DNA of 64,000 nucleotides from Myxococcota bacterium (GTDB taxonomy: Bacteria > Myxococcota_A > Polyangia > Polyangiales > Houyiibacteriaceae): positions 180 to 64,179 of the forward strand of contig JBCCEK010000003.1 of assembly GCA_039030295.1 (NCBI GenBank), given 5' to 3'. Shown here in pieces: positions 13,079 to 59,538 of the stretch. Positions within the stretch are counted from its first letter, which is position 1. The number at the start of each line of letters is the position of its first letter. The notes beneath the pieces are model-generated. The model was not told the origin of the DNA, made no database searches, and saw only the letters and a list, made by a program, of their open reading frames with translations. The position numbers were made by a program, and so were the translations under genes.

Positions 13079-13197
13079 ACGGACCTCCAAACAACGAATC
13101 AGGGGTTCGACGAGCGTACACCCCACGGCCGGGTCGGCCAAGGGCGGAGATCGAGCGACCTTGCTCCAAGAGCCGCCCGTTGGGGCCGAACCGAGCT

Positions 13198-39036: not shown

Positions 39037-39041
39037 CGGTC

Positions 39042-41323: not shown

Positions 41324-42692
41324 GCTTTTCCTCCTCGACGAAGACCTCAGTTGGGTCGTCAGGGCGTGCCCAGGATTCGGGTGCTGCCCACGACACCGAC
41401 CGTTGCCGCATCAAACTCTGGCTCGGGTGAACGCTCGCCCACGGCCACCGAAGCCAGCCCGCGAGCTCGCGCGCCGTGGCGGCGTCAGAAAGAAGCACCC
41501 CGGCGCCGGCTCGCAGTGCAACGCGTGAGAAGGCCCGAACGAAATCGACTCGGCTCGTCGTAGCCGCGCCAAGCAGATCCATGGTTCGGTTGCGTTGCAT
41601 CGAGCTCGCGCGCCAGGTGCTGAAAATCGAGTCGCGAATCGCGATCGCCCCCACGTCCTCGCGAGCAAACGCCTGGTAAATCGCGTTCGAGAGGAGTTCC
41701 GGCACGTAGCTTTCGGCAGCCCGCTGTGCGGCATACGAGCTCAGCGAGCGGGCTCCGGCGAGGGCCTCTGCATCGAGGAGCGACATCGTGATGCCCATGG
41801 CGGTGAGCGGGTGGAACACCCCGGCCGCATCGCCGACGAGCGCCACCCCGCGGTCGGTTTGGTAGCGTCGCGGGCGGAACGTATTCGCGGCCCATCCGAT
41901 CGACGCATCTCCGGCGCCGCGACGGACGCCTTCGCGGAGCGCAGGTGGGAGCACCTCCGCGTACGACTTCCAGATCCAATCGTGGCTCTTCGTGCTTGCG
42001 CGCGCATCGTGCGGAACGTCGATGCACATCCGTACGGCGTTGTCCCCGATGCGATAGGCCAGCGCCGGCCCTGGTCCGCCCGTGATCACATGCCCGTACT
42101 CTTCGAAAGGAAGTTCGGTATCGCGCACGACCAGTCCGGCCATGACCGAGATCGAAACCTTCTCGCTGACTGCACCATCACCGAGGATCTTGCGCGCCGA
42201 GCGCCCCGTTGCGATGACGACGAGAGGTGCGTTGACCACGCGCGACTTAGACCTCTGAGTCAGCGTCACGAAGCGGCCCCGGACCTCGCTCGCGCGCACC
42301 CCTTCGAGATAGTCGACGCCTCTCGTCTGACTCACGCGCGCGCGCAGATGGGTCACCAAGGTTGCGTGTTCGCAGGAGAGACCGCGCTCGCCGCCGCCAT
42401 ACTCGAGGGTGATCGGACCGAGGCCATCGTTTGGAAACACGACGAAGCCGCGCCCGGTAGCGCCGTGCTCCAGTCCATCTAAAAGTTCGAGATTACGAAG
42501 GATTCTAGCCCCTTCGGGATGCACCCACTCCCCAGCGAAGCGCCGCGCTGCGTTCGGGTTCGACTCGACCAGGAGAACGCTCGCACCTCGCCGAGCGAAC
42601 GCCGCGGCGGTTGCGCAGCCCGCCGGTCCTGCACCGATAACCACGGTGTCGTACGCCGATCGAATGTCGCCCAAGTCGAACGTTGGCTGCAC
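41313..42692 (-). CDS. Squalene monooxygenase (epoxidase), FAD-dependent
   Basis: DTVVIGAGPAGCATA dinucleotide fold, GEWVHPEG, LVGDAAGVFHPLTAMGITMSLLDA. GTG start. Overlaps the SQS start by 11 nt. Confidence 0.85.
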   Translation of the reverse strand: MQPTFDLGDIRSAYDTVVIGAGPAGCATAAAFARRGASVLLVESNPNAARRFAGEWVHPEGARILRNLELLDGLEHGATGRGFVVFPNDGLGPITLEYGGGERGLSCEHATLVTHLRARVSQTRGVDYLEGVRASEVRGRFVTLTQRSKSRVVNAPLVVIATGRSARKILGDGAVSEKVSISVMAGLVVRDTELPFEEYGHVITGGPGPALAYRIGDNAVRMCIDVPHDARASTKSHDWIWKSYAEVLPPALREGVRRGAGDASIGWAANTFRPRRYQTDRGVALVGDAAGVFHPLTAMGITMSLLDAEALAGARSLSSYAAQRAAESYVPELLSNAIYQAFAREDVGAIAIRDSIFSTWRASSMQRNRTMDLLGAATTSRVDFVRAFSRVALRAGAGVLLSDAATARELAGWLRWPWASVHPSQSLMRQRSVSWAAPESWARPDDPTEVFVEEEKHVS

Positions 42693-43014
42693 GGTTTCCC
42701 CTGGCGCTTAGTATTCGCGCGCCGCGTCCGGCAGCTACAAGATTCGCTTCGGTGGATCGAACGTTGGTGTCGATCGTCCCAAAGCGCGCACGAACGGTTT
42801 GACAACTTCCCAATCTTTACAGCGTGTTGCGTTGCTGTACGTAGACGGATCAGCTTTACAATGCGTTGGCTATCGTGCTGTTGATCACGGTTCAATGATC
42901 GCTGCGGACCGCTGGCGAGATCTCACGAACGAGTCACACGTTTCTCGCGCTGCCAGTTACCGCGCGCGCTACAAACAATCGCGTCACATCGTCTCAAAGA
43001 GGAGAACACGTGAA
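42693..43014. promoter_or_regulatory. Divergent control region between the squalene-epoxidase operon and the HMG-CoA-synthase operon
   Basis: The only sizeable non-coding gap in the module. Exact 11-mer TCGAACGTTGG at 42676-42686 and 42757-42767. GATCGA-N9-TCGATC at 42755-42775. TTGACA at 42799-42804. Two CTTTACA..GCGTTG..TGCTGT units at 42815-42838 and 42854-42881. SD AAGAGGAG lies 10 nt before ATG 43015. Confidence 0.4.
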
Positions 43015-44112
43015 ATGAGCGCGAACCCTGCAGGCATTGCATCCATTGGTCTTCAACTTCCCAGGCTCTTCATGCCGGTGACAGAGCTCGCTGATCTTCG
43101 TGGGGTCGATCCGAACAAGTTTACAAAGGGTTTAGGCTGCGGTGAGATCGCACTTTGCGATCCCGACGAAGACGCCGTCACCTTGGCCGTTGGCGCTGCG
43201 AAACGTGCCCTCTCGCGTTGGGACGGGCTTGCCGAAGACATCGGGCTCATCGTTGTGGGCACGGAGAGTGCGAAGGACATGAGCCGTCCGCTCAGTGCTT
43301 GGGTCGCCGAGGAGCTCGGCCTCTCTGGGGGGATCCGGTCCTACGAAGTGAAGCACGCGTGCTATGGCGGAACGCTCGCGTTACGCCAGGCGCTCGAGTG
43401 GAAATGGTCGGGCGCTTCTGCAGGCAAGGCGGCGCTCGTGATCGCTTCCGACGTCGCTTTGTACTCGCTTCAAGATCCGGGCGAGCCCACGCAGGGCGCC
43501 GGGGCGGTCGCGATGATCGTAGACGAACCCCTCGTCGCACGCATCGAGAACCGCTCCTATCCGTTCAGCAGCCCGGCGTTCGACTTCTGGCGCCCGGTCG
43601 GCGATCCGTTCCCGTCCGTTGAAGGGCAGCTTAGCCTCGACTGCTACAAGCGCGCGGTCGAGGAGTGTTACGGCGCGATGGTGGGCGACCGAGATGCGCG
43701 CGCTGTCCTCGGGGCCTTCGAGGCGATGGCGTTCCACGTCCCGTTCCCGAAGATGGTCAAGAAGGCGGTCCTCCACCTGGCCGAGCAGCTCGGGTGGACC
43801 GAAGCCGAGGGTGAGGCGCTTTACGCGGAGAAGGTCGACTCGACCATGGCGTGGAACCGTTCGGTTGGAAACGCCTACACGGCGAGCCTTTGGATCTCGG
43901 TTGCCGGCACGCTCTCGGGTATGGCGGAGGGCACCCGCATGACGGCGCTCTCCTACGGATCCGGCTACGGCGCCGAGCTCCTCGAGCTGGTCGCAGGCCC
44001 TGCTGCCTCGGCTGGTGCGTGGGCAACCGACATCGAGCAGGATCTCCGTCAGCGCCGCCTGGTCGACAAAGCGACTTATGAATCTCTTCGGGGTCATGCA
44101 CGCGCGAGCTGA
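43015..44112 (+). CDS. mvaS: HMG-CoA synthase
   Basis: VGTESAKDMSRP, and the catalytic-Cys context EVKHACYGGT. Start moved to ATG 43015, which has a strong SD. Confidence 0.9.
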   Translation: MSANPAGIASIGLQLPRLFMPVTELADLRGVDPNKFTKGLGCGEIALCDPDEDAVTLAVGAAKRALSRWDGLAEDIGLIVVGTESAKDMSRPLSAWVAEELGLSGGIRSYEVKHACYGGTLALRQALEWKWSGASAGKAALVIASDVALYSLQDPGEPTQGAGAVAMIVDEPLVARIENRSYPFSSPAFDFWRPVGDPFPSVEGQLSLDCYKRAVEECYGAMVGDRDARAVLGAFEAMAFHVPFPKMVKKAVLHLAEQLGWTEAEGEALYAEKVDSTMAWNRSVGNAYTASLWISVAGTLSGMAEGTRMTALSYGSGYGAELLELVAGPAASAGAWATDIEQDLRQRRLVDKATYESLRGHARAS

Positions 44113-45187
44113 GGGCCCTCGGGCGCCGTCGGATGCGGCCCTCGGTGCTCGCAAGGCCGACCACCTCGATCTCTGCGAAGGAGACGCGGTCGCATTCCGA
44201 TCGAAGACGACTCTCCTCGAGGGCGTCCGGTTTCTCCACCAGTCTCTCCCCGAGTTGGCGTCAAACGAAGTCTCCACGGAGACGCAACTCCTAGGGCGCA
44301 CGCTACGCGCTCCTATCGTGATCGCCGCGATGACCGGCGGACACGAGCGCGCGGCGTCGATCAATCGCGGGTTGGCGGCGATCGCGGAGCAGCGGGGAAT
44401 CGGCCTCGGGCTTGGAAGCCAGCGTGCCATGCAGCGGGACCCGTCGATGGAATGGACCTACAGTGTTCGCGAGTGGGCGCCGAACATCCTGCTCCTCGGG
44501 AACATTGGCGTCGTGCAGGCCCGCGAGACGCCGACACGCGACATCGAAGGGTTGGTACGCGACGTCGGGGCCGATGCGTTGTGTGTGCATCTGAATCCGG
44601 CGATGGAGCTCATTCAGTCCGATGGTGACCGCGACTTCCGCGGCTGTGTGGACGCATTGAAGCGACTCTCGAACGAGCTCTCGGTTCCGGTCGTGGCGAA
44701 GGAAACCGGGAACGGGCTCAGTCCCCAAACCATCGCAAAGCTCGTTGAGGCGGGTATTCGGTACGTCGATACGTCGGGTGCGGGTGGAACCTCGTGGGTC
44801 GGGGTCGAGACGCTGCGGGCCGACGGCGTTCGGCGCACGATCGGAGACAGCCTCTGGGACTGGGGCATCCCGACCGCTCCCTCGATCCACTATGCGCGTC
44901 AGGCCAACATGACCACGATCGCCACGGGCGGCGTCCGTTCGGGTCACGACGTCGCCCGCGCGTTGGCACTCGGGGCGTCGGCCGCAGGCATTGCGCGACC
45001 GGTGTTGCAGTCGCTCCAGCAAGGCGGCGAGGAGGGTGCACTCACGTTCATCGACGGTATCGTGGAGGAGCTCCGCGCAGTCATGCTGCTGACAGGCTCG
45101 GCGACCCCGGCGGCGCTTCGCGAGGCACCGAGAATCATCTCCGGTGAGCTCGATCGCTGGATGGGCGCGGCGGGCCCAACGCCATGA
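44096..45187 (+). CDS. fni: Isopentenyl-diphosphate delta-isomerase, type 2 (FMN-dependent)
   Basis: RKADHLDL, APIVIAAMTGG, VVAKETGNG, SGAGGTSW, GGVRSGHDVA. Start ATG 44096 overlaps the HMGS 3' end (alternative 44078). Confidence 0.9.
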   Translation: MHARAEGPRAPSDAALGARKADHLDLCEGDAVAFRSKTTLLEGVRFLHQSLPELASNEVSTETQLLGRTLRAPIVIAAMTGGHERAASINRGLAAIAEQRGIGLGLGSQRAMQRDPSMEWTYSVREWAPNILLLGNIGVVQARETPTRDIEGLVRDVGADALCVHLNPAMELIQSDGDRDFRGCVDALKRLSNELSVPVVAKETGNGLSPQTIAKLVEAGIRYVDTSGAGGTSWVGVETLRADGVRRTIGDSLWDWGIPTAPSIHYARQANMTTIATGGVRSGHDVARALALGASAAGIARPVLQSLQQGGEEGALTFIDGIVEELRAVMLLTGSATPAALREAPRIISGELDRWMGAAGPTP

Positions 45188-45909
45188 CGCTGCGGGCCAT
45201 CGTCGTCGACGGTGAGCCACCCGCCCGGCAGGAGCTATCGTTCCTCCTTGGGCAGTGCGACGGCGTCGAGGTCGTCGGTCGTGCGGCGGTGCCCGTCGAA
45301 GCGGAACGTCTTTGCGACGAGGTCGACCCACACGTGGCGTTCATCGATCTTCGCATGCCCGGAACCGACGGCCTCTCGTTGGCCAACGCGCTTCGTCGCC
45401 GCCATCTCGAGCTCGATGTCGTGATCGTCTCGGCCCACGATGAAGGGGCGATCCGTGGATTCGACCTTCAGATCGCGGACTACCTCCTCAAGCCGGTGAG
45501 CCTCGAGCGGCTGCGCCGCACACTCAGACACCTCGAAGACAGCCGATCCGACGCGCGCAGCCCGTTTCCGATCGAACGCTTCGCGGTACGTCGCAAGAAC
45601 GCCTATGTGGTCCTCGACCTGAAGGACGTGATCTACTTCGAGGCGCGCGACGACCTGGTTTGGGCGGTGACCGCTGACGATCGATTCGCCATCGATCGCA
45701 CGCTGGCGAGTCTGGCCGAGCACCTCGACGGCGAAGACTTTTTTCAGTCGCACCGAGGCTGCATCGTTCGGCTCGACAAGATCCGGGTGATCGAGCCTTG
45801 CGGCGCCCGCACCTTCAGGATCGTCGTCGATCACCCGGAGAGCCCCTCCGTGCCGCTCGCACGCGATCGGGTAGGCAAGCTGAGAGAACGAATTCCGTTC
45901 CTTCGCTAA
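45184..45909 (+). CDS. LytR/AlgR-family response regulator (REC + LytTR DNA-binding domain)
   Basis: REC domain with the acceptor context VAFIDLRMPGTDG. The C-terminal LytTR pattern is VVLDLKDVIYFEARDDLVWAVT...FFQSHRGCIVRLDKI. ATGA overlap with the fni stop. Confidence 0.9.
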   Translation: MTLRAIVVDGEPPARQELSFLLGQCDGVEVVGRAAVPVEAERLCDEVDPHVAFIDLRMPGTDGLSLANALRRRHLELDVVIVSAHDEGAIRGFDLQIADYLLKPVSLERLRRTLRHLEDSRSDARSPFPIERFAVRRKNAYVVLDLKDVIYFEARDDLVWAVTADDRFAIDRTLASLAEHLDGEDFFQSHRGCIVRLDKIRVIEPCGARTFRIVVDHPESPSVPLARDRVGKLRERIPFLR

Positions 45910-45918
45910 CGCACCGGC

Positions 45919-46950
45919 TCAGGCGGGTCGCTGGGCGACGAAGAAGTAGTTCGGCGTGAAGATTCCGAGCTCTCCGCCGGCGATCAACGACTCGGCGGCG
46001 TTCCCAAGCATCCGGCTGACTTCGGTCGAGCCCGGAGGCGCGATCCGAAGCCGCTCGAGGGTACGAATCGTCCGGCGTGCGATCGCACGACCGACACGCC
46101 CGCGCCGGATGGCGATCGGATTGCTGAGCTCGCCCTTGAGCGGCAAGTACCAAGGCGTCCGCGCATCGGACCTCGTTGCCGCGTCGTGGCTTTCGACGAT
46201 CTCGAAGCCGGCCTCGCGGAGTGCTTCGAGAACCTCTGGGACGGTCGCAATGTCGGGCAGGCTGTCGCCCTCTTCGATGCCCTTCTTGATCTTCTGGTGA
46301 TGCGCATTCGTGGGGTCGAAGGCGTCCGTCATGCACCACTCATACGCGGCGAACTTGCCACCCGGCTTGAGAGTCCTGAGGATCTGCTTGAACACGGCGA
46401 CCTTGTCCGGGGCATGGCACGTCGCCTCGAATGCGTACGCGGCGTCGTACGTCTCGTCAGCGACACCGAGGTTCATGAAATCGTCTTTGAACCCAGAGCA
46501 CTGGCCGGCGAGCCCGGCTTTCTGGTTGTACTGCTCGAGCTTGGTCAGCTGGTAGTCGTTGTTGTTCACGCCTTCGATCGTGGCACCCGAGAAGCGCGCG
46601 ATGGCCCGCATGGGCCCACCGACCCCGCAGCCCACGTCGAGGACCTTCATGCCCTCGTTGAGCCCCAGTCGGAGCGCAAAGAAATGCTCGGAGCGAGCCA
46701 AGGACGCATCGAACGATTCACCGTCGAAGCGGGGTGCGAAGTGAAAGGACTGGCCCCAGCCGTGCTCGTAGAAATCGGTGACCAGATCGTAGTAGTGATT
46801 GATCATGGTCGTGTAGTCGGCCTTGCGCGTCTCGACGTTCGCGCCTGACGACTCGTCGAAGAAACCGAGGTAGTCGCGAATGGCGCCGCGGACGGTGCTG
46901 CGCGTCCGCGCGTCGGAGTAGAATTGCGTTACGGCTTGCTCTTGAGTCAT
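45919..46950 (-). CDS. Sterol C-24 methyltransferase (ERG6/SMT family)
   Basis: YYDLVTDFYEHGWGQSFHFA (SMT region I), VLDVGCGVGGP (SAM site), YAFEATCHAP (region III), 343 aa. Confidence 0.9.
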   Translation of the reverse strand: MTQEQAVTQFYSDARTRSTVRGAIRDYLGFFDESSGANVETRKADYTTMINHYYDLVTDFYEHGWGQSFHFAPRFDGESFDASLARSEHFFALRLGLNEGMKVLDVGCGVGGPMRAIARFSGATIEGVNNNDYQLTKLEQYNQKAGLAGQCSGFKDDFMNLGVADETYDAAYAFEATCHAPDKVAVFKQILRTLKPGGKFAAYEWCMTDAFDPTNAHHQKIKKGIEEGDSLPDIATVPEVLEALREAGFEIVESHDAATRSDARTPWYLPLKGELSNPIAIRRGRVGRAIARRTIRTLERLRIAPPGSTEVSRMLGNAAESLIAGGELGIFTPNYFFVAQRPA

Positions 46951-47181: not shown

Positions 47182-48534
47182 ATGGCCGACGGCGAAACCA
47201 AACTCGGGACTTTCTCGACCCTTTCCATCGGGATCGGGGGCATGGTGGGTGGGGGGATCTTCGCGGTGACGGGCCTCACTGTCCAGGTCACCAAAGGGGC
47301 CGCCCCGATCGCGTTTCTGATCGCAGGCATCGTGGCACTCCTCACGAGCTACTCGTATCTCAAACTCACACTCCGATATCCCGGCGAGGGAGGCACCGTC
47401 TCGTTCCTCAACCAGGCTTTCGGAGGCGGAGTGCTGACCGGCTCGGCCAACATCTTGCTCCTCCTGAGCTACGTCGTGCTTCTGGCCGTGTACGCGTACG
47501 CGTTCGGGAGCTACGGCGCGAGCTTCTTTCCGAAAGAGGAGCGTACCCTGTGGCTTCATGTGCTGATCAGCGCGGTGATCATCGGGCTGGTGGTCATCAA
47601 CGTGTTCGGCACGCAGCTGGTGATTCGATCGGAGAACTTTTTCAACGTCGTCAAGATGCTGCTTCTTGCAGTGTTCGTGGTGTGGGGGCTTGCGACGCCG
47701 ATGACCTGGAACCGGCTGGCACCTGCCGAGTTCGTTTCGCCGGTCTCACTCGTTGCGGGCGCCATGCTGATCTTCTTGAACTACGAGGGCTTCGAGCTCA
47801 TCGCGAATGCGTCCAAGGACGTGGCCGATCCCAAACGTTCTCTTCCGATTGCATACATCGGGGGAGTCTTGTTGGTCATGGTGCTCTACGTGTTGATCGT
47901 TACCGTTGTCGTCGGGCATATGACGTTTGCCGACGTCGAGAAGACACGCGACTACGCGCTGTCGGTTGCGGCGGAGACGTTCATGGGACGCCCCGGCTAC
48001 GTGGGTATCGCCGTGGCCGCGCTCATGGCCACCAGCTCCGCGATCAACGCGACATTCTACAGCACGGGCCGACTGACTTACATCATCGCGAAGAGCGGTC
48101 AGCTACCGCGCGAGCTCGAGCGGGAGCTCCGAGGCGAGCACCTCGAGGGCACCATCATCACTGCGGGGTTGGCGTTGCTGATCGCGAACGCGATCCCCCT
48201 TGATGCGATCGCGACCATGGGCAGCGCAGGCTTTCTCTTGATCTTCGTCGCGGTGAACGTCGCCAACGTACGCCTCGCGAAGGAGACCAACAGTCGCGCC
48301 TGGCTGTCTGGAATCGCGGCCCTGACCACAACCGCGGCGCTCATCGTGTTGTGTATCGAGATAGGCTCCAAACCCGAGACTAGGAACCAGTTGTGGATCC
48401 TCGCGGCGATGGTTGCCGTCTCGTTCGGCGTCGAAATGGCCTACCGAAAGAGCACGGGTCGCCACATCTCTCTAGTATCTCGTGGTACTTCCGAGACCCA
48501 GGCGCCTGTCCTTGGTGCCGGCCCTGAAGACTGA
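47182..48534 (+). CDS. APC-superfamily amino acid permease
   Basis: 450 aa with about 12 TM segments. The N-terminal LSIGIGGMVGGGIF is typical of APC transporters. Confidence 0.85.
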   Translation: MADGETKLGTFSTLSIGIGGMVGGGIFAVTGLTVQVTKGAAPIAFLIAGIVALLTSYSYLKLTLRYPGEGGTVSFLNQAFGGGVLTGSANILLLLSYVVLLAVYAYAFGSYGASFFPKEERTLWLHVLISAVIIGLVVINVFGTQLVIRSENFFNVVKMLLLAVFVVWGLATPMTWNRLAPAEFVSPVSLVAGAMLIFLNYEGFELIANASKDVADPKRSLPIAYIGGVLLVMVLYVLIVTVVVGHMTFADVEKTRDYALSVAAETFMGRPGYVGIAVAALMATSSAINATFYSTGRLTYIIAKSGQLPRELERELRGEHLEGTIITAGLALLIANAIPLDAIATMGSAGFLLIFVAVNVANVRLAKETNSRAWLSGIAALTTTAALIVLCIEIGSKPETRNQLWILAAMVAVSFGVEMAYRKSTGRHISLVSRGTSETQAPVLGAGPED

Positions 48535-48545
48535 GGAGAAGAAGC

Positions 48546-50048
48546 GTGTTCAAGGACTACCCCGACTACGACGGCATCGGTCTCGCCGACCTCATGAAAC
48601 GGAAGGAAGTATCCCCCGCCGAAGTGATGGAGGCGGCGATCGCGCGCACGGAGGCGCTCAATCCCAAGTTGAACGCGATCGTCACACCCCTCTACGATCG
48701 CGCCAAGAGGGACGACCTGCCCGACGGCGCAGGCCCCCTCGCCAACGTCCCTTTCCTCTTGAAGGACGTGCACCACGCGCTCGAGGGAACCCCGATGAGC
48801 AACGGGAGTGCGCTTCAGCAGGGAGAAGTCTCGACGCGCAACGCGACGATCGTCGACCGTTGGCTTCGGGCCGGCCTGCGGGTTTTCGGAAAGACCAACA
48901 CGCCCGAGTACAAGCTGACGCCAACCACCAACCCCAAGATTTTTGGCGCCACCCGCAACCCTTGGGACCTCGAACGAACGCCTGGCGGCTCGAGTGGTGG
49001 ATCGGCGGCTGCGGTTGCGGCACGACTCGCACCGCTCGCTTCCGGCACGGACGAGGCTGGCTCGATCCGAACGCCATCGGCCAACTGCGGGGTGTTTGGG
49101 CTCAAACCTTCCCGCGGTCGAAACCCGATTGGCCCCGATTTTCGCTGGGAGCTCGGCGGCTGCTCGACTTCGCACGTCATCAGTCGAAGCGTCCGCGACA
49201 GTGCGGCCGCGCTCGACGCGACTCACGGGCCCGAACTTGGCGGACCGTATCATTGCCCCATCGGCGGGGGGTTCCTCGAAGCGCTGCAGGAGCCCCCGAG
49301 CACGCTCCGCGTGGCCGTCGATACCGGGACGAGTTACTTCGGACGTCCCATGGAGCCAAGCTGCGTGGCTGCGGTCGAACAGGCCGCCAAGATACTTGAA
49401 CGCCTGGGCCATCACGTCGAGCTCGTGCCACTTCCGTTTGATGAATCGGAGGCACTCTGGCTATCGGTCATCTTGATCGCGACGAGCTTCGCCGGGTTCG
49501 TCGACGAGCTCGTAGATGAGTACGACCTCGCGCGCGTGAAACGCGGTATCGAGCCGCTCAACTATTTCATCTGGAAAGCTGGGCACGCGGTTCCTTCGCA
49601 GATCACCGAGCGTGCCCGTCTTCAACGCCACGAGCTCGCTCGGTCGCTCGCCGAGTTCCACACCCGCTACGACGTTCTTGTCACATCGACGATGTGTTGC
49701 GCACCGAGGCTGATCGAGGAAACCGAGCCTTCGTCCGCCGACATCAAGCTCGCGACGGTCCTCGCGTCGGGGTTGCTACGGCCCCTGGGTGCCGTGCCCG
49801 GTGTTATCGAGCGCATCATCGATGCGCAGATCGACAGCTTGATCTCGCGCGTCCCGTATCGCACAGCGCTCGCGAGCGTCACGGGGCAGCCGGCGATGTC
49901 GGTTCCGCTTCATTGGACCGACGAGGGGCTTCCTGTTGGGGTTCAGTTTCTTGGGGGTTTCGGAAGCGAGCGCATGTTGCTTCAGTTGGCGTCCCAGCTC
50001 GAGTCGGCCCACCCGTGGGCGTCCAAGCGACCTTCGCATGCGTCCTGA
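48546..50048 (+). CDS. Amidase (amidase-signature family)
   Basis: [45 protein letters not shown] signature. GTG start. Confidence 0.9.
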
Positions 50049-50107: not shown

Positions 50108-51112
50108 ATGGGAACAAAACCGACTGGCCTACTCGCGTTCTGGCGAAACTACGATCGTAAGACCTACGTCAAGGCGGCGGTACTTGCCGATCGCCTCGGA
50201 TACGACTCGTTCTGGCTTCCCGAGGTCTGGGGCTACGAGTCGTTCACGCTTCTCACCGAGATCGCTTTGAAGACGAAGCGCATCAAGTTGGGCACCGGCA
50301 TCATCAACGTGTTCAGTCGGTCGCCCGCCCTGATCGCCATGCAGGCGGCCACCCTGGACGAGGTCAGCGGCGGAAGGTTCATTCTCGGGGTCGGCACGAG
50401 CGGCAAGCGCGTGATCGAAGGGCTTCACGGACGTGACTTCGAGAAACCACTCACGCAGACGCGAGACGTCATACGAGTCGTCAAGACGCTCCTTGACGGA
50501 CGGCCCATTTCGGAGTCCGACGCGAAGCTCCGGCACTACCGACCGTTCAAGCTCGACTTCGAGCCAAGGCGAAGAAAGATCCCGATCTATGTAGCGGCGC
50601 TTAAGCAGAAATCGGTCACGAGTATCGGGGAACTTGCCGACGGGTGGATGCCGATCTTCTGGCCGTACGATCGTCTCGAAGACGGACGGGCTTGGATCGC
50701 CGATGGGGCTGCCAAGTCTGGGCGAGATCCGGCGGAGATCGTGACCGCGCCCTTCACGACGGTCATCCCTGTGCCGGGCCGCGGCGCCTCGAAGAAGGCA
50801 CGCGAAATTATCGCGTTCTACATCGGCGGCATGGGTGAGTACTATAAGGAGCTGCTCACCGGCTTCGGCTACGGTGAGGAGTGTAACGAAGTCGAGCGGC
50901 TGTACCGTGACAAGTCGACTCGAGCGCAGGCTCTTGACGCGGTGACCGACGAGATGGTCGAACGACTGACGATCTCAGGCGATCCCCTCCACTGCCGCAA
51001 AGAGCTCGGGAGACGGCGCGGGCTTGGTCTGCAAGAGCCGATCATCAACTTACCGCCAGGCATCCCGTGGCCGGCGATGGCCGCCTTCATTACATCGCTT
51101 GCGCGGGCCTGA
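50108..51112 (+). CDS. Luciferase-like (LLM class) flavin/F420-dependent oxidoreductase
   Basis: [20 protein letters not shown]...[18 protein letters not shown]...[11 protein letters not shown]. Start moved to ATG 50108. Confidence 0.8.
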
Positions 51113-51149
51113 CGACTCCACAGCCGACAAGTTGGTGTATGCTGCACCC

Positions 51150-52088
51150 ATGTCTCCCGTCGAGGCGCCCTTCGCGAAGGGGTGGTACATGGTTTGCTGG
51201 AGCAACGACCTCGAGCGAGGCGCGACCTTGCCGCTCCGTTACTTCGCCAAGGACTTCGTGTTGTTCCGAGGGGAGAGTGGCCGCGCCACACTCCTCGACG
51301 CGCATTGCCCGCACCTCGGTGCGCACCTCGGTCACGGAGGCTGTGTCAAGGGTGACGATATCGTTTGCCCGTTTCATGCGTGGCGGTTCTCGCCCGAAGG
51401 TCGCTGTATCGAGGTCCCCTACGCGAGCCGCATTCCACCGAAAGCAGCCCTCCGGCAGTATCCGGTTTCGGAACACAGCGGGATGATCTTTGCCTACTTC
51501 GATGAAGAGGGGGTCGTCCCCGACTACGAAGTACCGCCGATTCACGAGCTGGACGATCCCAACTGGACTCCGCTCGAGATGAGTGAGATCCAGATCGCCA
51601 CCCAGCCGCGTGAGGTCATCGAGAACGTCGCGGACGTTGCGCACTTTGGCCCGGTTCACCACCAGACGATCGATGAGTTCGAGATGATCATCGATGGGCC
51701 AAGGGCCACTCAGAGAACGATTGGCAGAGGGGGGACGCTCGACGGGAGACCGATACCGGTCGAGTCGGTCGCGACCTATCACGGACCGGCCGTGCAATTC
51801 ACGAGGCTGATGTGGGCCTACGACATGGTCCTGGTGAACGCCCATGTGCCCATCGACCACGAGGCGCTCGTCCTTCGGTTCGGCGTGACGCTCCGCAAAC
51901 GAGCGGGCGAGAACGCGGGGCGTGACGTGATTCTGCAGCACGTCGCGGCAGCGCGCGACGGTTACTTCCAAGATGTCGCCATCTGGGAGCACAAGCGATG
52001 GCGCGATCGACCCACCCTCGTTGAGGGAGACGGGCCGATCGGCGAGATCCGGAAGTGGTACCGGTCATTTTTCGCTGAAGCATCTTGA
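51150..52088 (+). CDS. Rieske [2Fe-2S] non-haem-iron oxygenase (KshA/Neverland/SdmA-like single-component alpha subunit)
   Basis: Rieske CPHLGAHLGHG...CPFHAWRF. Mononuclear iron motif ENVADVAHFGPVHH (E-x3-D-x2-H-x4-H). Start moved to ATG 51150. Confidence 0.85.
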   Translation: MSPVEAPFAKGWYMVCWSNDLERGATLPLRYFAKDFVLFRGESGRATLLDAHCPHLGAHLGHGGCVKGDDIVCPFHAWRFSPEGRCIEVPYASRIPPKAALRQYPVSEHSGMIFAYFDEEGVVPDYEVPPIHELDDPNWTPLEMSEIQIATQPREVIENVADVAHFGPVHHQTIDEFEMIIDGPRATQRTIGRGGTLDGRPIPVESVATYHGPAVQFTRLMWAYDMVLVNAHVPIDHEALVLRFGVTLRKRAGENAGRDVILQHVAAARDGYFQDVAIWEHKRWRDRPTLVEGDGPIGEIRKWYRSFFAEAS

Positions 52089-52113
52089 GCGCCACACGAC
52101 GGCGGACGCGCGG

Positions 52114-53478
52114 TCAGCGTGGGATGAGCCGCATCGGAAGTCCATCGACAGGCTTGCTGAACGGGAAGTACTGGAGCTTGGCGGGGTAGTACCCACGCTT
52201 GGCGAACTCGAGCCGGTACCCTCGAAGCATCTCGGCGAACGTCTGCATGAAGAGAAGACGCGCGAAGTGCATCCCGATGCATTTGTGTGCGCCGCCGCCG
52301 AACGGAATCCACATGAAGTTGTGTTTTCGGTGCTCGTTGCGGTCCTCGCCGAACCGTGTGTGGTCGAATTCGTCGGGGCGCTCCCAAAAGCCTTCTAGGC
52401 GCTGGATGTAGATCCCGGGTACGCACACCATCGTATCGGCTGGGATTCGGACGCCTCCGAACTCGCATTCACGAATGGTGCGACGAAGAAATAGCGAAAC
52501 GGGCGGGTGCAGCCGGAGTGTTTCGTAGAACACGCCCACAACCTCTTTCATCTCGTGAAAGAACGCCTCGTAGCTCGGTGGCTGCTCAGTACCGGCGAAG
52601 TCGCGGTAAAGCGTCTCTTGAAGGCGGAAGTCGTGGCACAGGTAGTACGCTGCCATCGTTGCGGCGCTGGTCGTCGTGTCGTGCGCCGCAAGCATCAAGA
52701 AAACCATATGATCCGCGATGTCCTCGTCTTCGTAGTACTGGCCCTCCTCGGTCTTCGAACGGCAGAAGTGGGCGAACACGTCTTCATCGTCGGAGGTGCG
52801 TTTGCGCGCGATCAGATCCATGAAGAACCGCTTGAGCGTGCGACGGCCGCGAAGGCCTCGATGGTAAGGAAGGCCGGGGATGGGCAACCGGACCACCCCG
52901 AGCGCACCCTCCATCATGTCCGTGAAAGCGGTGTTCACGAGTCGGATGGTCTTGTCTGAGTCTTCAACCCAGCAGAACACTTCGAACGCGATGTCCAGCA
53001 ACAGGAGCTTGACCTCGTCGTAGAATAGAAACTCGTCACGTTCCGCCCATTGCGAGACTCGCCGCTCTACGATGCGCTGAATGCGGGACAGGTACCCACG
53101 CATCGCATCGGGCTTGAATGACGTCTGCATGATGCCGCGGTGCAGGCGATGCTCCTCGAAGTCGCGCATCACGAGGCCGCCTTCGAAGAACTCCGCCATC
53201 ACCGACTCCCAGCCCTTCTTGATCGAGAAGTTCTTCTCTCGATCGAGAAGCACCCGCTGGGCGTGATCGGGGTGGATCAGAAGCGTGCACTTGTTGCCGG
53301 TGATCGAGATTCGGCTCACCGGCCCGTACTTCCGGAAGTGTCGGTCGAACATGGCGTTCGGGTCGCGGACCATCTCGAGCGTCTTGCCGACGAGGGGGAG
53401 CCCGTACTCCCCAGGCAAGTGCCTGAGGTCGCGATTCGCTGGCCGCTGGTCGTACGGGATCGGTTCGGCGTGTTCCAT
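52114..53478 (-). CDS. Cytochrome P450 (not CYP51-like)
   Basis: Haem loop FGGGAHKCIGMHFA, ETLRLHPP (ExxR), and I-helix LMLAAHDTTTS. ATG 53478 preferred over GTG 53487. Confidence 0.9.
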   Translation of the reverse strand: MEHAEPIPYDQRPANRDLRHLPGEYGLPLVGKTLEMVRDPNAMFDRHFRKYGPVSRISITGNKCTLLIHPDHAQRVLLDREKNFSIKKGWESVMAEFFEGGLVMRDFEEHRLHRGIMQTSFKPDAMRGYLSRIQRIVERRVSQWAERDEFLFYDEVKLLLLDIAFEVFCWVEDSDKTIRLVNTAFTDMMEGALGVVRLPIPGLPYHRGLRGRRTLKRFFMDLIARKRTSDDEDVFAHFCRSKTEEGQYYEDEDIADHMVFLMLAAHDTTTSAATMAAYYLCHDFRLQETLYRDFAGTEQPPSYEAFFHEMKEVVGVFYETLRLHPPVSLFLRRTIRECEFGGVRIPADTMVCVPGIYIQRLEGFWERPDEFDHTRFGEDRNEHRKHNFMWIPFGGGAHKCIGMHFARLLFMQTFAEMLRGYRLEFAKRGYYPAKLQYFPFSKPVDGLPMRLIPR

Positions 53479-53593: not shown

Positions 53594-54472
53594 TCAGGCG
53601 GCGTCGCCCGAGTCCGGGCCAGGGTCCTGCGGAGTGCTCTTGGCCGCATCTTGGATGGTCGCGGCGAGCGCCCGCACCTCCCTGTCACTCAGGGTCTCTG
53701 ATTGAAGTCGTTCGGCGGTGCGCCGGATCGCTGCGAACCGCTGGTCGATGGTTTCGTAGATCGCGCCGTTCTTGGGTGGGAGCGTCAGCCGACCCGTGAC
53801 CTCACGGAGCCTGGACTCGGCTTGTCGTCGGTTGCGCTCGGCTTCCTCGTGCAGCTGAACTGCGCCCTTGAAGTTCTCGAGAAGCTCGGCTTGCTCCCGC
53901 AGGCTCGAATCCAAATGCCGCGTAAGTACGTCCACGCTTACGATCGCCACACCGCCGAACACGGCGAAGAGCGCCGTCACTCGCAACCAATCGACCAAGT
54001 CTGTCGGGTCGTAAAAGTGCGCTGTCTCTATCGACACGATCCCGCTCGAGAGGCAGACCCCTGCGGTCAGCAGCGCGAGCAGGTTGAACCCGAAGGCCGT
54101 CCAGGTCGCGCGTCGTCCAAAGAGAACCGAGGCGAGAAGGTTCTGCGCGACCAAGATCAGGATCGGGGCGGGGAGGTAGCCCGCGGCGAAGAGACCAAAG
54201 ACCCCCCCAACGTAGAGCAGCCCGAGAAAGCCGGCGGCGCGCACCGCGTACGACAGGGGCCGGGCGAGGAGTAGGATCGTTAGTCCTGCGTAGACGACGA
54301 GAGCGGCACCCGCGACCGTCCATGCCTCCATGTCGATCGCGTCCACCAAGGTCCGCACAAACGCGAGCCCGCCCACCGCAACAGACATCAGAAGAGTCAC
54401 GTTGAGGATGCGAAGCCGAATGGCGTTGGCTTCGTTTGCGATATTGCGTTGCTTTGGCGCGTCAGCTTCCAA
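53594..54472 (-). CDS. Hypothetical polytopic membrane protein with a C-terminal coiled-coil
   Basis: 292 aa. About six hydrophobic segments are followed by a charged helical tail (LREQAELLENFKGAVQLHEEAERNRRQAESRLRE). No kinase motifs seen. Confidence 0.5.
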   Translation of the reverse strand: MEADAPKQRNIANEANAIRLRILNVTLLMSVAVGGLAFVRTLVDAIDMEAWTVAGAALVVYAGLTILLLARPLSYAVRAAGFLGLLYVGGVFGLFAAGYLPAPILILVAQNLLASVLFGRRATWTAFGFNLLALLTAGVCLSSGIVSIETAHFYDPTDLVDWLRVTALFAVFGGVAIVSVDVLTRHLDSSLREQAELLENFKGAVQLHEEAERNRRQAESRLREVTGRLTLPPKNGAIYETIDQRFAAIRRTAERLQSETLSDREVRALAATIQDAAKSTPQDPGPDSGDAA

Positions 54473-54647: not shown

Positions 54648-55607
54648 TCAGCCGTAGGTCGCTTCGAGGGCGGCGACGAAGGCATCGAGTTGGTCCGCCG
54701 GAAGCGCGTTGATCCCGGCTGCAGCGGCCCGTCCCCCGCCGGTCGGGAACTGCCGACACAGCGTGTCCGCCCCGCGCTTGTCGTCGAGCGGAGCCCGCAC
54801 GCTCACAAGGTACGTTCCATCGGCGCGTTCCGTGAGCACCGCATGCGCGCGGGACGGCGTGCGGTTCGCCAGCTCGTTGCCATACACGCCAGAGACGCGG
54901 CGTGCCCAGGGCTCGTCCGGCAAGATGACGACCGAAGTCGCATCGTCTTGCCTTGCCGGCTCGACTGAGGCCGCCGCGGCCATGTCCTGTCGGTAGCCTG
55001 TCTCCAGCGCCTCGAACGTCTTCGGCGCCTCACTCACGAAGGCGAACGGCGTCGGGAACGGACTCACCAGACGAAAGAGCTCATCCGGCGCGAAGTGAAG
55101 GTCCTCGAGTGAGGAACCGTATCCGTTGTAGTTGATGCAAGTCCCAAGCGTGTCGAGCAACGCGAGCTGGGCCTCGGTGAGATCGAGGGGCGCGGCAAGG
55201 GCGCGTGCCGTCTCCTTAAGGTTGTCGCCGAAAGCGCCGGTGATCGCCCACTCGACGTAGGCCCCCCCGAGGCGGCCGTTCACCAGCAACGATGTGCATA
55301 CATTGGGATCAGTGTCGATGATCGTTTCAAGTTGGGGGTGCTCTGGAACCTCCCCCGCGAAGTGGTGGTCGACGTAGAAGACACTTGCCCCGACCGCGAG
55401 GGCTTGCTCGACGCCGCCGCGGTTCTTGTCGAAGCTGACATCGAGCACGGTCACTTGGTCGCCTTCTTTTGTACCTGCCTTGGCAACCAGTGCGATGTCG
55501 CGCTTCACCCCGGTGACGAGTCGACTGTCACGCGGTTCGGCGTTGTGCAGTTGCGCGAGGGCACAAATCCCATCCGCATCACCGTTGAAAATGTCGATCC
55601 GTGCCAT
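54648..55607 (-). CDS. DHH-family phosphoesterase-like protein
   Basis: N-terminal FNGDADGICA (DxD motif) and YVDHHF (DHH motif). Confidence 0.65.
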   Translation of the reverse strand: MARIDIFNGDADGICALAQLHNAEPRDSRLVTGVKRDIALVAKAGTKEGDQVTVLDVSFDKNRGGVEQALAVGASVFYVDHHFAGEVPEHPQLETIIDTDPNVCTSLLVNGRLGGAYVEWAITGAFGDNLKETARALAAPLDLTEAQLALLDTLGTCINYNGYGSSLEDLHFAPDELFRLVSPFPTPFAFVSEAPKTFEALETGYRQDMAAAASVEPARQDDATSVVILPDEPWARRVSGVYGNELANRTPSRAHAVLTERADGTYLVSVRAPLDDKRGADTLCRQFPTGGGRAAAAGINALPADQLDAFVAALEATYG

Positions 55608-55616
55608 GGGCGGCTC

Positions 55617-56567
55617 CTACTGAGCTTCGACGCGGTTGTCCAACGCGCCGAGGTCGATCGACCCGTCGTCCGTGGAGATCGTCGCCCGCACTCGATCCCC
55701 AGGCTGCAAGTAACGGCCGCCCGCCTCTTGCAGTTCGGTGAACCGCTGCCATTTCTTCGCGCGTGGGAGCTTCGCGAGCATGGCGTTCTGTTCGGCAGAG
55801 CGCTGCATGGCGACCCCGGACGGCGTGCCGCTCGCGATCAAATCGCCAACGCGTAGGTCTTGCACCTCGGAGAGTTCGGTGAGGGTCTCTCCGGGCTTGT
55901 AAACCATATTTTCACAGACCGCGTCCTGCCTCAGCTCCTCGTTGACGTACATCCGCAGGCGTAGCGTGTGCCAGCGTTCCCGGATCTGGTCATCGACGAG
56001 GGTGAGCCAAGGCCCTGTCGGTCCGAACGTGCGGAAGCTCTTTCCCTTGTAGTACTGGAGTTCCGACAGCTGCACGTCGCGGGCGCTCACATCGTTGTGG
56101 ACGACAAGCGCACCGATCGCGTCCGGCAGCGTCGAGTTCTCGAACGTCTCCGGGGCAACGATGTCCCTGGCAAGAACGAGACCAAGCTCGACTTCGTAAT
56201 CGAGCAAGCGAACCCGTGCAGGCCTCACGATCGGATGGTTCGCACCACACAAACAGGAGGAGGCCTTCCTGAACCACATGTTGAACGTCTTCGAATCTGG
56301 GTCGACGCCCGTCTCTCGGGTGTGCGCGCGGTAGTTCTTCGCCAGACAAACGACCTGTTGGTTTCGGGTCACCGGTGACAGGAACTCGACGCCGTCGAGG
56401 GCGGTTGTCGCCCCTGTGCGGGCCGCGGCCTCCGCGATCGCGTCGGTGCCACTGCGCAGCAAGGCGCCGGTGGTCTCGAAATCGCCCTCGACCCAGGACA
56501 GGCCGTCCTTTCGGACCACCGCCCACCGAGGACCGCTGTCTTGCTGAACTCGAGCAACGCGAATCAT
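55617..56567 (-). CDS. Fumarylacetoacetate hydrolase (FAH) family protein
   Basis: VVCLAKNYRAH, DYEVELGLVLARD, GDLIASGTPSGV are FAH-fold hallmarks. Confidence 0.85.
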   Translation of the reverse strand: MIRVARVQQDSGPRWAVVRKDGLSWVEGDFETTGALLRSGTDAIAEAAARTGATTALDGVEFLSPVTRNQQVVCLAKNYRAHTRETGVDPDSKTFNMWFRKASSCLCGANHPIVRPARVRLLDYEVELGLVLARDIVAPETFENSTLPDAIGALVVHNDVSARDVQLSELQYYKGKSFRTFGPTGPWLTLVDDQIRERWHTLRLRMYVNEELRQDAVCENMVYKPGETLTELSEVQDLRVGDLIASGTPSGVAMQRSAEQNAMLAKLPRAKKWQRFTELQEAGGRYLQPGDRVRATISTDDGSIDLGALDNRVEAQ

Positions 56568-56641: not shown

Positions 56642-57304
56642 ATGACCCAATACGTGTTCGAACCGACAGACCTACAGCGCATCGTGAAGATGCACCTCCA
56701 TGTGCCTCTGGACCGGCGCTTCGATCGGATCGCCCACACGCTGCATGCCGTGTACGGAGAGCACATCCATCCGGGCCGCGAGTGGATCTGGAGCAACGCC
56801 GGCGGGATCATGTGCTCGATGAGCGTGCTCCACACCTCGCCGAAGGAGTACCTCTTGTTCTGCGGAACGGCCGTGGGGTCCGAAGGACACAGCGGGCGGC
56901 ATCGTGCCGAACTCTACGACATCGTGATCAATGGCGAGCTTCAGACCTTCAAGCCCGACCAGTTCGCACCACGGACCCTCCAGCCCGGCGAAGTCTCGCA
57001 CCTGCCTCGATTGACGACCAACGGCAGCCACTTGAGCCGCGAGTGCTGGCTGCTCGAGTATGCGCGCGGGAACATCATGTCGATGTTTCCCTTTGCGCTT
57101 GGGGACACGGTGTTCAGCACCCAGGACCTGACTGATTTGGGCAAGACGATGGTCCACTCCACCAAGCTCATGCTGTCGGAGGCCAAGCTTGCGGTCAGGA
57201 GCCGTTTCGGACGCGGCAGCCTGCCCGCGCCTCGGCTCGACCTCATCACCGATCCAGCGCCCGCGGCCCCGAAGCCGTCGAGCGACGACACGTCCCTTAA
57301 TTGA
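56642..57304 (+). CDS. ERG2/sigma-1-receptor family protein (putative sterol C-8 isomerase)
   Basis: Colinear with human sigma-1 receptor from about residue 35, as recalled: YVFEP..., NAGGIMCSMSVLHTSPKEYLLFCGTAVGSEGHSGRH.AELYD, WLLEYARG, FALGDTVFSTQD. The equivalents of Asp126 and Glu172 are conserved. No N-terminal TM helix. Confidence 0.85.
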   Translation: MTQYVFEPTDLQRIVKMHLHVPLDRRFDRIAHTLHAVYGEHIHPGREWIWSNAGGIMCSMSVLHTSPKEYLLFCGTAVGSEGHSGRHRAELYDIVINGELQTFKPDQFAPRTLQPGEVSHLPRLTTNGSHLSRECWLLEYARGNIMSMFPFALGDTVFSTQDLTDLGKTMVHSTKLMLSEAKLAVRSRFGRGSLPAPRLDLITDPAPAAPKPSSDDTSLN

Positions 57305-57447: not shown

Positions 57448-59538
57448 ATGAAAGACCTCACCACCTACCGGAACATCGGCATCTTCGCGCACGTGGACGC
57501 CGGCAAGACCACCACGACCGAGCGCATCCTCAAACTCACCGGCAAGATTCACAAAATCGGTGAGGTCCATGATGGGGCGGCGACGACTGACTTCATGGAG
57601 CAGGAGCAGGAGCGAGGCATCACGATTCAGTCGGCGGCGACCACCTGTTTTTGGGACGGCCACCAGCTGAACATCATCGACACGCCCGGCCACGTCGACT
57701 TCACGATCGAGGTCTATCGGTCCCTCAAGGTGCTCGATGGCGGGGTCGGTGTGTTTTGCGGCTCCGGCGGCGTCGAGCCGCAGTCCGAAACCAACTGGCG
57801 TTATGCCAACGAATCCGAAGTTGCGCGCCTGATCTTCGTGAACAAGCTCGATCGCGCGGGCGCCGATTTCTACCGCGTTGTCGACCAGATCAAAGACGTG
57901 CTCGACGCGAAGCCGCTCGTCATGGTGCTGCCTATCGGTACCGAGGCGGAGTTCGTCGGGGTCGTCGATCTGCTCACCCAGAAAGCGTACGTGTGGGACG
58001 ATTCGGGCCGACCCGAGAACTTCGAGGTGAAGGACGTACCCGAAGACATGGCGGAGCTCGTCGAGAAGTATCGCACCGAGCTCATCGAAGCTGCGGTCGA
58101 ACAAGACGATGACGCACTCGAACAGTACCTCGAGGGCAATGAGCCCGACGTCGACACGATCAAAGCATGCATTCGGAAGGGAACACGCGACCTCGTCTTC
58201 TTCCCAACGTTTTGCGGTTCAGCGTTCAAGAACAAGGGCGTCCAACAGGTTCTCGATGGCGTCGTGGCTTACCTCCCGAACCCGACCGAGGTGCCGCCGC
58301 AGCCCGAGATCGACCTCGAGGGCAACGAGACCGGCAAGTTCGCCGACGTCGACCCGACCGGCCCGGTCCGCGCGCTCGCTTTCAAGATCATGGAGGACCG
58401 ATTCGGCGCGCTGACCTTCACGCGAATCTACTCCGGCACGATCAACAAGGGCGACACCCTGGTCAATACGTTCACTGGGAAGAACGAACGCGTCGGGCGT
58501 ATGGTCGAGATGCACGCCAACGACCGTACGATCGTCGAGACCGCGCAAGCTGGAGACATCGTTGCGATGGTCGGGCTGAAAGACGTTCGGACAGGACATA
58601 CCCTCGCCGACGCGAAGGACCCCGCGACCTTGGAGCCGATGGTCTTTCCGGACCCCGTCATCTCCGTGGCGGTCTCGACGAAGGACAAGGCGAACAGCGA
58701 GAAGCTCAGCACTGCGCTTGGCAAGATGGTCGCCGAAGACCCGTCGTTCCACGTCGAGGTCGACCAGGAGTCCGGCGAGACCATCCTCAAGGGGATGGGT
58801 GAGCTCCATCTCGACATCAAGGTCGACATCTTGCGTCGGAGTCACGGCGTCGACGTGCAGGTCGGTGCGCCTCAGGTGGCCTACCGCGAAACCGTCACTT
58901 CGATGATCGAAGACAGCTACACGCACAAGAAGCAGACCGGTGGGTCAGGCCAGTTCGCGAAGATCGACTACCGAATCGAGCCTGCCGAGGCCGGCGAGGG
59001 CTTCGTCTTCGAATCGAAGATCACCGGCGGCAACGTGCCCAAGGAGTTCATTCCCGCGGTCGACAAGGGTTTCAAACAGATGATGGAGACCGGTCCCCTT
59101 TGCGGTTTCCCGTTGCTCGACTTCAAAGTGACGCTGCTCGATGGCGGCTACCATCCGGTCGACTCCTCGCAGATGGCGTTCGAAACGGCGGCCAAGGCGG
59201 CGTTTCGTCAGAGCATGCCGAAGGCCGGCCCCCAGCTTCTAGAACCGATCATGAAGGTGGACGTGTTCGTTCCCGACGCCAACGTCGGCGACGTCATCGG
59301 CGACCTCAACCGCCGACGCGGTATGATTGGCGCGCAGGAAAAGGGCCACACCAACGTCCGCATCAAAGCGGATGTCCCGCTGAGCGAGATGTTCGGCTAC
59401 ATCGGCGACCTTCGCTCCGCGACCTCAGGTCGTGGCCAGTTCTCGATGGAGTTCAGCCACTACTCCGCCGTTCCGCGCCACATCCTCGAGAAGGTCCAAG
59501 CCGAAGTCGCCGAACGCGAAGCCGCCAAGAAAAAGTAG
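57448..59538 (+). CDS. fusA: Translation elongation factor G
   Basis: [34 protein letters not shown]. Full five-domain length (696 aa). Confidence 0.97.

Follow-up and report, generated by a model that had tools for sequence, protein, structure and literature searches.

The 64-kb window analyzed here (64,000 nucleotides of contig JBCCEK010000003.1, from the Myxococcota bacterium assembly GCA_039030295.1) contains two oxygenase genes that meet in the neighborhood of sterol biosynthesis genes. The first, at 51150–52088 on the plus strand, encodes a Rieske oxygenase of 312 residues with a KshA_C catalytic domain (Pfam Rieske 1.3e-19 and KshA_C 1.9e-47), and the second, at 52114–53478 on the minus strand, encodes a soluble cytochrome P450 of 454 residues (Pfam p450 3.8e-52). 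The Rieske gene is the last of four on the plus strand, where it follows an APC-family amino-acid/organocation permease (47182–48534; Pfam AA_permease_2 5.6e-38), a NylA-like amidase of the amidase-signature family (48546–50048; Pfam Amidase 8e-80) and, directly ahead of it as the first-pass annotation had noted, an LLM (luciferase-like) oxidoreductase that is F420-type by similarity (50108–51112; Pfam Bac_luciferase 7.8e-67). The gaps between these genes are 11, 59 and 37 bp, and a GGAGG motif is found 8 bp ahead of the LLM ATG. The P450 gene shares its strand with the gene for a MASE11 membrane sensor protein, a short form without kinase domains (53594–54472; Pfam MASE11 2.8e-16), which lies 115 bp upstream. 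Only 25 bp separate the stop codons of the two convergent oxygenase genes, which lie in separate gene units that abut tail to tail and not in a single unit. A scan for promoter-like sites gave a count of 0, and the 12 terminator-like sites did not exceed the number in shuffled sequence (8.0±2.9), both results being uninformative for this high-GC organism.

We read this arrangement as two independent units, in which the plus-strand operon would be accessory and the P450 would act in sterol tailoring, and we give that reading about an even chance of being right. The first-pass annotation had offered a different choice, in which both oxygenases were either novel sterol-tailoring enzymes or members of an unrelated amidase-linked catabolic operon. 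Each branch of that choice fits one of the genes, since the Rieske gene is the amidase-linked one and the P450 fits the sterol branch, but the treatment of both as one unit did not hold up.

The pair had also been placed 4 kb from the sterol genes. This is correct on the side of the sterol C-24 methyltransferase gene (SMT, ERG6-type; 45919–46950, minus strand; Pfam Sterol_MT_C 1.4e-20 plus methyltransferase domains), the nearest sterol gene in that direction, from which the permease start is divergent at a distance of 231 bp. It left out, however, an ERG2/Sigma-1-receptor-like gene on the opposite side (56642–57304, plus strand), which encodes a putative sterol C-8 isomerase (Pfam ERG2_Sigma1R 5.2e-52, over profile positions 20–205 of 210) and whose homologs carry the JGI name "C-8 sterol isomerase". 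Because this gene lies 3 kb beyond the P450, the oxygenase pair has sterol genes on both sides. The GC content is 61–67% across the whole window, and the oxygenase genes show no compositional break. In the block formed by the LLM, Rieske and P450 genes, GC content at third codon positions is 0.75–0.80 in frame and orthologs share 79–95% identity, which shows that the block genes are real and constrained.

The translation of the Rieske gene contains an intact [2Fe-2S] motif (C53-P-H55-L-G ... C73-P-F-H76-A-W) and the iron site E158-x3-D162-x2-H165-x4-H170, both as annotated earlier, and D275 can be added as the third iron ligand; in 19 homologs, the cluster and iron-site residues do not vary. 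Among solved proteins, three KshA structures come closest (179–186 bits over the full length, best 8e-54), followed by SxtT/GxtA at 73 bits over the Rieske domain only. When an AlphaFold model (pLDDT 83.8) was searched against the PDB with Foldseek, KshA was again the best match (TMq 0.85–0.88, E ~1e-25; for 2ZYL, E 1.7e-25 and TMq 0.88), and SxtT/GxtA reached TMq 0.72–0.77. The previous typing of the protein as a single-subunit oxygenase of the KshA/Neverland kind holds, the KshA_C domain, the sequence and the fold all pointing to KshA. A grouping with aromatic-ring oxygenases, which had been named as evidence against a sterol role, is not seen; the protein groups with the steroid-acting KshA by sequence and fold.

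The comparison with KshA (M. tuberculosis Rv3526; R. rhodochrous KshA1/KshA5; PDB 2ZYL, 4QDC, 4QDF) extends to the domain architecture, the [2Fe-2S] ligands, the bridging Asp and the 2-His-1-Asp iron triad. The two proteins are 36% identical in the HMMER alignment with M. tuberculosis KshA, in which C53, H55, C73, H76, D162, H165, H170 and D275 align to C67, H69, C86, H89, D178, H181, H186 and D304. They differ in length, KshA having 386–394 residues: the alignment stops at KshA residue 339 of 386, leaving the C-terminal ~47 residues without a counterpart, and the whole subfamily of the window protein (311–335 residues) likewise ends before this segment, which has been linked to trimer formation (PMC4064121). 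This subfamily is large: a threshold of E ≤ 1e-20 yields 1,156 proteins, most of them from metagenome-assembled genomes (MAGs) of Myxococcota or Polyangiales.

What kind of substrate would such a protein accept? In a review of KSH enzymes, the steroid-contact residues of KshA are listed as V176, Q204, Y232, M238, N240, N257, F301 and W308 (PMC4064121). Five of these eight (V176, Q204, Y232, N257 and W308) are identical in the window protein, F301 is conservatively replaced by Y, and M238 and N240 are changed to Q and T. The pocket positions vary among 98 homologs from the collected loci, in which Q188 and Y210 are each kept in 42 and N230 in 31. The kept residues are therefore not a mere constraint of the fold, and the fact that this subfamily still carries the KshA pattern appears meaningful, suggesting a bulky, steroid-like substrate.

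Two other sterol-related Rieske oxygenases invite comparison. SdmA, the Rieske 4-beta-methylsterol monooxygenase, serves sterol biosynthesis in bacteria, and its gene frequently clusters with those for oxidosqualene cyclase (OSC) and other sterol enzymes (PMC10202945, PMC10070321). The window protein differs from it in having a KshA_C-type catalytic domain and no adjacent SdmB gene. An identity as SdmA can be ruled out, as the protein reaches 70.5 bits with the NCBIfam SdmA model NF052579 (cutoff 600), which matches the N-terminal Rieske domain alone (profile positions 18–174 of 351). The cholesterol 7-desaturase Neverland/DAF-36 is a single-subunit Rieske oxygenase with the sterol nucleus as its target. 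A phylogeny of Rieske oxygenases reportedly groups it with KshA (PMC4064121), but it is eukaryotic and membrane-associated.

In the proposed electron path, an NAD(P)H-dependent, unlinked reductase would deliver electrons to the [2Fe-2S] cluster (C53, H55, C73, H76), from which they would pass between subunits at D162 and reach the mononuclear iron (H165, H170, D275). There the activation of O2 would lead to the hydroxylation or desaturation of a bulky, probably polycyclic substrate in the KshA-like pocket. KshA itself uses a separate reductase and, like the window protein, needs no ferredoxin encoded nearby.

Taken as a whole, the operon of the Rieske gene resembles a system that takes up and converts an amide compound. 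The best solved relative of the amidase is NylA, the 6-aminohexanoate-cyclic-dimer hydrolase (251 bits), and the amidase reaches no NCBIfam equivalog cutoff. For the LLM protein, the top NCBIfam models are TIGR04024 (222.2 bits, cutoff 345.4) and TIGR03559, the Rv3520c family (221.9 bits, cutoff 335); both are F420-type, and in both cases the protein scores below the cutoff. Its best PDB match is the F420-dependent Mer (115 bits). It is also the most conserved protein of the block, with 92% identity in the related locus L001, 88% in L168 and 83% in L170 (related loci are given by L numbers throughout). Rv3520c falls in the M. tuberculosis KstR cholesterol regulon (PMC1995591, PMC6429209), which for the LLM protein is a lead only.

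These links raise the idea of catabolism, with the Rieske oxygenase attacking exogenous steroids in the manner of KshA. The steroids might be amide-conjugated, in which case the amidase would deconjugate them first, leaving the released amino acid to the permease. The best match to KshA, the largely retained pocket, an LLM protein whose top named models include a family founded by a member of the KstR regulon, and the presence of amidase and permease in the same operon would all suit such a scheme. KshA, however, resides in a steroid-catabolic cluster with KstD and KshB, whereas the window gene has permease, amidase and LLM genes as operon partners within a sterol-biosynthesis region, and no KshB, KstD or Hsa-type meta-cleavage genes were detected among about 70 open reading frames of the window, which were typed by Pfam and NCBIfam profile scans, or in the related loci examined. 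The LLM protein falls short of its family cutoff, and the C-terminal extension of KshA, ~47 residues long, is missing from the Rieske protein. We regard steroid catabolism as very unlikely to be the role of this operon.

The distribution of the Rieske gene among relatives speaks for a more local association. The order permease-amidase-LLM-Rieske occurs beside sterol genes only in the window, in L001 (a TARA scaffold, 81%) and in L168 (a Polyangiales MAG, 79%), with the permease first in each; SMT is kept in L168 and absent at that position in L001. An LLM ortholog (83%) stands near MASE11-EF-G-DHH-ERG2 in L170, with no Rieske gene after it, and the operon is absent around the P450 in L004, L167, L169 and L087, which have other genes at that position. 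A tblastn survey of Rieske loci covered L002–L003 and 80 GTDB-species loci (L007–L086, among the matches listed), each to 10 kb, at 35–68% identity and mostly from Myxococcota, Halieaceae and Acidimicrobiia; the window's own clade was not among the listed genomes. Across the 84 more distant loci considered, no sterol gene lay within 10 kb of the Rieske homolog, and the surveyed loci had no LLM or P450 match at the level of an ortholog over that distance; one had an amidase match of 33% and four had P450 matches of 23–25%. None of the four relatives at 66–68% identity has a sterol gene nearby. Two of these four, L003 (10001–15330) and L007 (8053–13827), present a LysR gene, an unknown gene and an operon composed of Rieske, Amidohydro_2, acetoacetate-decarboxylase-like and SDR genes, with or without an aldehyde dehydrogenase. 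L002 and L007 both carry a nearby group of FAA-hydrolase, FAD aromatic-hydroxylase and TetR genes, and L014, a 47% relative, is surrounded by unrelated genes. Judged by these contexts, the more likely home of the Rieske gene is an accessory, hydrolase-linked operon restricted to a narrow lineage. The operon would most likely process an imported or amide-linked compound, and it probably contributes no core step of de novo sterol synthesis.

The P450 gives a different picture, starting with its identity. Its motifs are I-helix A264-A-H-D267-T268-T-T-S, E319-T-L-R322 and FGGGAHKC400IG, all invariant in 17 homologs. In phmmer searches, CYP120A1 (the Synechocystis retinoic-acid hydroxylase) scored highest at 129 bits, followed by vertebrate CYP51 at 114–121 (human 121), CYP725A4 (the taxadiene 5-alpha-hydroxylase) at 110 and bacterial CYP51 at 87–92. 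A model of moderate quality (pLDDT 69) had CYP725A4, CYP120A1 and CYP51 as its top Foldseek matches (TM 0.77–0.80, 21–24% identity), so that the best match by sequence is CYP120A1 and the best by structure CYP725A4. CYP51 shares the fold and a comparable length (TM 0.78–0.80). An identity as CYP51 is nevertheless ruled out, in agreement with the earlier annotation of this convergent gene: the two are only 21–23% identical, CYP120A1 outscores every CYP51, and the I-helix AAHDTTTS has a normal acid-alcohol pair in place of the CYP51 signature.

Membership in a CYP family is defined by 40% identity, and by this measure the P450 belongs to none of the structurally characterized families. With identities of 21–24%, far under that level, no function can be transferred from CYP120A1 or CYP725A4. 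The nearest structural relatives all oxidize isoprenoid-derived lipids, either terpenoids or sterols. The protein is of the soluble class I type, with C400 as the thiolate ligand, the D267-T268 acid-alcohol pair and the ExxR motif, and we infer that its electrons come from an unlinked ferredoxin and ferredoxin reductase. Its probable role is the tailoring oxidation of a sterol or of a related isoprenoid lipid, and the protein is not the canonical 14-alpha-demethylase. Elsewhere in the window, an RPE65-type carotenoid cleavage oxygenase is encoded at 27188–28639 on the plus strand (8.6e-120), followed by a zinc-type alcohol dehydrogenase; the oxygenase gene may matter, given that the top sequence match of the P450 is a retinoic-acid hydroxylase.

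Among relatives, P450 homologs with at least 74% identity adjoin sterol-type genes (ERG2, EBP or FA_hydroxylase) in five distinct layouts. EBP is the other type of sterol Δ8-isomerase, and FA_hydroxylase proteins belong to the ERG3/ERG25 superfamily. The window and L168 share the first layout. L001 represents a second, with EF-G inserted and no SMT, and L004 a third (ERG2 / FAAH-DHH-P450). In the fourth, L167, a MASE11-HisKA-HATPase kinase gene is followed by the P450, and the 6 kb downstream include genes for EBP, MarR and FA_hydroxylase. In the fifth, L169 and L087, an FA_hydroxylase gene convergent with the P450 fills the position that the Rieske operon has in the window, and MASE11 kinase, EF-G, DHH and ERG2 genes come after. 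A MASE11 gene stands beside the P450 in all five layouts except that of L004, where there is none, and full kinases are its neighbors in L167, L169 and L087. The window MASE11 protein (292 residues) is 52–55% identical to the N-terminal ~280 residues of these kinases, which have 463–466 residues.

The linkage between the P450 and sterol genes thus survives rearrangement yet is confined to one clade, defined by at least 74% protein identity. Because the gene stays next to ERG2, EBP or FA_hydroxylase through several rearrangements, the P450 leans toward sterol tailoring, and together with its MASE11 partner it is a plausible candidate for such a step. The genes between MASE11 and ERG2 in the window, encoding a DHH/DHHA1-like protein (54648–55607; Pfam) and an FAA-hydrolase-family protein (55617–56567; Pfam), are on the minus strand and divergent from ERG2, which is followed by EF-G (57448–59538, plus strand; Pfam/NCBIfam). 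The DHH-like gene is kept by ERG2 in L001, L004, L169 and L170, and the FAA-hydrolase gene also in L001 and L004. Other P450 genes occur near ERG2 as well, in L170 (17492–20040, next to a classical Ring_hydroxyl_A Rieske oxygenase) and in L004 (1356–2777); that the second P450 of L004 might be a CYP51 was considered and rejected, its best matches being CYP184A1 and CYP170A1.

Several observations weigh against this division of roles. Around P450 homologs of 70% identity or less, at about 75 loci from metagenomes and genomes, no sterol gene is present within 10 kb; the recurrent neighbors of those at 65–70% are an MFS transporter and a small open reading frame, along with sugar methyltransferases, and clustering of the neighbors gave no functional clue. 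L170 keeps ERG2-DHH-EF-G-MASE11 without this P450 nearby. Since all loci with a sterol linkage come from one fairly shallow clade, the association of either oxygenase gene with sterol genes may represent inherited synteny and not selected clustering. From the other direction, the Rieske protein may still act on a sterol, given that it keeps KshA pocket residues and that its gene is placed between SMT and ERG2. In L171 (5589–7225, on a contig of 68% GC), a different KshA_C Rieske gene (326 residues, 39% identical) lies 5 bp upstream of an ERG2 homolog, in surroundings that include MarR, TetR and an FA_hydroxylase that shares 51% identity with its counterpart by the P450 and EBP of L167. As independent support for a sterol role this adjacency was rejected; the protein is only 39% identical, has a different pocket and is not SdmA, leaving a weak hint, and the syntenic locus L172 has no Rieske gene directly upstream of ERG2.

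It could also be that neither gene has to do with sterols. The operon would then take up and break down an amide or lactam, with the Rieske protein as a hydroxylase or dealkylase, and the P450 would be an unrelated lipid or xenobiotic mono-oxygenase, brought close to the sterol genes by inherited synteny. The lack of sterol linkage outside the clade with at least 74% identity supports this explanation, and it draws further strength from the NylA-like amidase, the APC-type permease, the hydrolase/decarboxylase/SDR operon under LysR around the Rieske relatives in L003 and L007, and the replacement of the plus-strand operon by other genes in L004, L167 and L169. It must account, however, for a P450 that has kept ERG2, EBP or FA_hydroxylase as a neighbor across five or more rearranged layouts, for a Rieske protein whose closest characterized relatives and pocket are of the steroid type, and for the location of the pair between SMT and ERG2. 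We consider it a serious possibility, though on balance a doubtful one.

At the opposite extreme, the two oxygenases might replace core steps of the pathway. The window has a large part of that pathway, typed by Pfam and NCBIfam. On the minus strand are genes for mevalonate-PP decarboxylase (34044–35102), FPP synthase (35945–37063), OSC (37060–39687), squalene synthase (SQS, 40247–41323) and squalene epoxidase (SQE, 41313–42692), and on the plus strand those for HMG-CoA synthase (42799–44112), type 2 IDI (44015–45187) and a LytTR response regulator (45184–45909), which overlaps the IDI2 stop by 4 bp and closes the sterol/mevalonate operon. As an aside, the MASE11 protein and the LytTR regulator might together make up a two-component system for the sterol genes, one that senses membrane lipids. 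A further gene of possible relevance to sterols, at 11309–13141 on the minus strand, encodes a wax-ester-synthase/DGAT acyltransferase with a fused C-terminal SCP2 sterol-transfer domain and could be a steryl-ester synthase.

The profile scans of about 70 open reading frames in the window found no second P450, CYP51 or ERG24-type domain, no SdmAB or ERG25–27, and no ferredoxin or ferredoxin reductase. The only SdmB-like match is weak, a 3beta-HSD/NAD-epimerase-family protein at 4358–5437 on the plus strand (63 bits vs a cutoff of 600), 46 kb from the Rieske gene. The report of the first-pass annotation that no redox partner, CYP51, C-14 reductase or SdmB-like partner is visible here therefore stands. 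The 4358–5437 protein is also weakly HpnA-like and has DUF2855 and di-haem peroxidase genes nearby. Reductases encoded elsewhere commonly serve both KshA-type oxygenases and bacterial P450s of class I, and for this reason the absence of nearby redox partners carries no weight.

With mevalonate genes, SQS, SQE, OSC, SMT and ERG2 present and the demethylation and C-14 reduction genes not found, the P450 could be imagined as a non-CYP51 C-14 or C-4 methyl oxidase, and the Rieske protein, perhaps with the LLM protein as its reductase, either as a C-4 demethylase other than SdmA or as a ring desaturase like Neverland. Oxidation of C-4 methyl groups by P450s is known (PMC11528044), with CYP5122A1 of Leishmania as a precedent, and the convergent position of the Rieske operon is taken in L169 and L087 by FA_hydroxylase, a member of the superfamily to which ERG3 and ERG25 belong. 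The window, however, covers only 64 kb of a genome, and from a related marine Sandaracinus MAG homologs for C-4 and C-14 demethylation have been reported at other sites of the genome (PMC10070321); for these two reasons a replacement of CYP51 or SdmA is unlikely. Myxobacterial sterol genes are in any case often dispersed (PMC10202945, PMC10152446). L170 has ERG2 without this P450 nearby, L004, L167 and L169 have no Rieske operon near the P450, and the P450 I-helix has an ordinary D-T pair and no CYP51 signature. We judge the replacement of core steps to be highly improbable.

How does this locus compare with what has been described? SMT-containing sterol clusters have already been reported from marine myxobacterial MAGs (PMC10070321), as have SdmAB, CYP51 and a GGR-type C-24 reductase that neighborhood analysis revealed (PMC10202945, PMC12004948), and oxygenated myxobacterial sterols with unknown P450s are known (PMC10152446). 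The sterol literature that was searched holds no description of a KshA-type Rieske gene or of this P450 subfamily in such clusters. A useful precedent is Bsr, a GGR-family sterol C-24 reductase found via gene neighborhood in Sandaracinus (PMC12004948), which indicates that non-canonical enzymes within myxobacterial sterol clusters can be genuine sterol enzymes. Bsr differs in belonging to another protein family than the window enzymes, in that its function was shown experimentally, and in that its distribution followed sterol producers.

A more ambitious proposal is that, in this marine Myxococcota clade, the Rieske protein and the new-family P450 are both dedicated sterol-tailoring enzymes, making C-24-methyl sterols that are oxygenated or desaturated in the ring or side chain, with the P450 under the control of the adjacent MASE11 sensor and the LytTR regulator of the sterol operon. 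We think this unlikely, but if true, it would be the first biosynthetic, and not catabolic, use of a KshA-type enzyme in bacteria. More broadly, short KshA-like oxygenases from marine bacteria make up a large subfamily, which the Rieske protein defines.

Sterol pathways in bacteria are relevant to the interpretation of sterane biomarkers and to the origin of eukaryotic sterol synthesis. In the Myxococcota, several late or tailoring steps, such as the nannosterol hydroxylations, are still without assigned enzymes. The locus adds an entry to a candidate list and is not a discovery, but its P450–MASE11 pair can be tested as a concrete candidate for a step of this kind, and offers a better starting point for follow-up than the Rieske gene.

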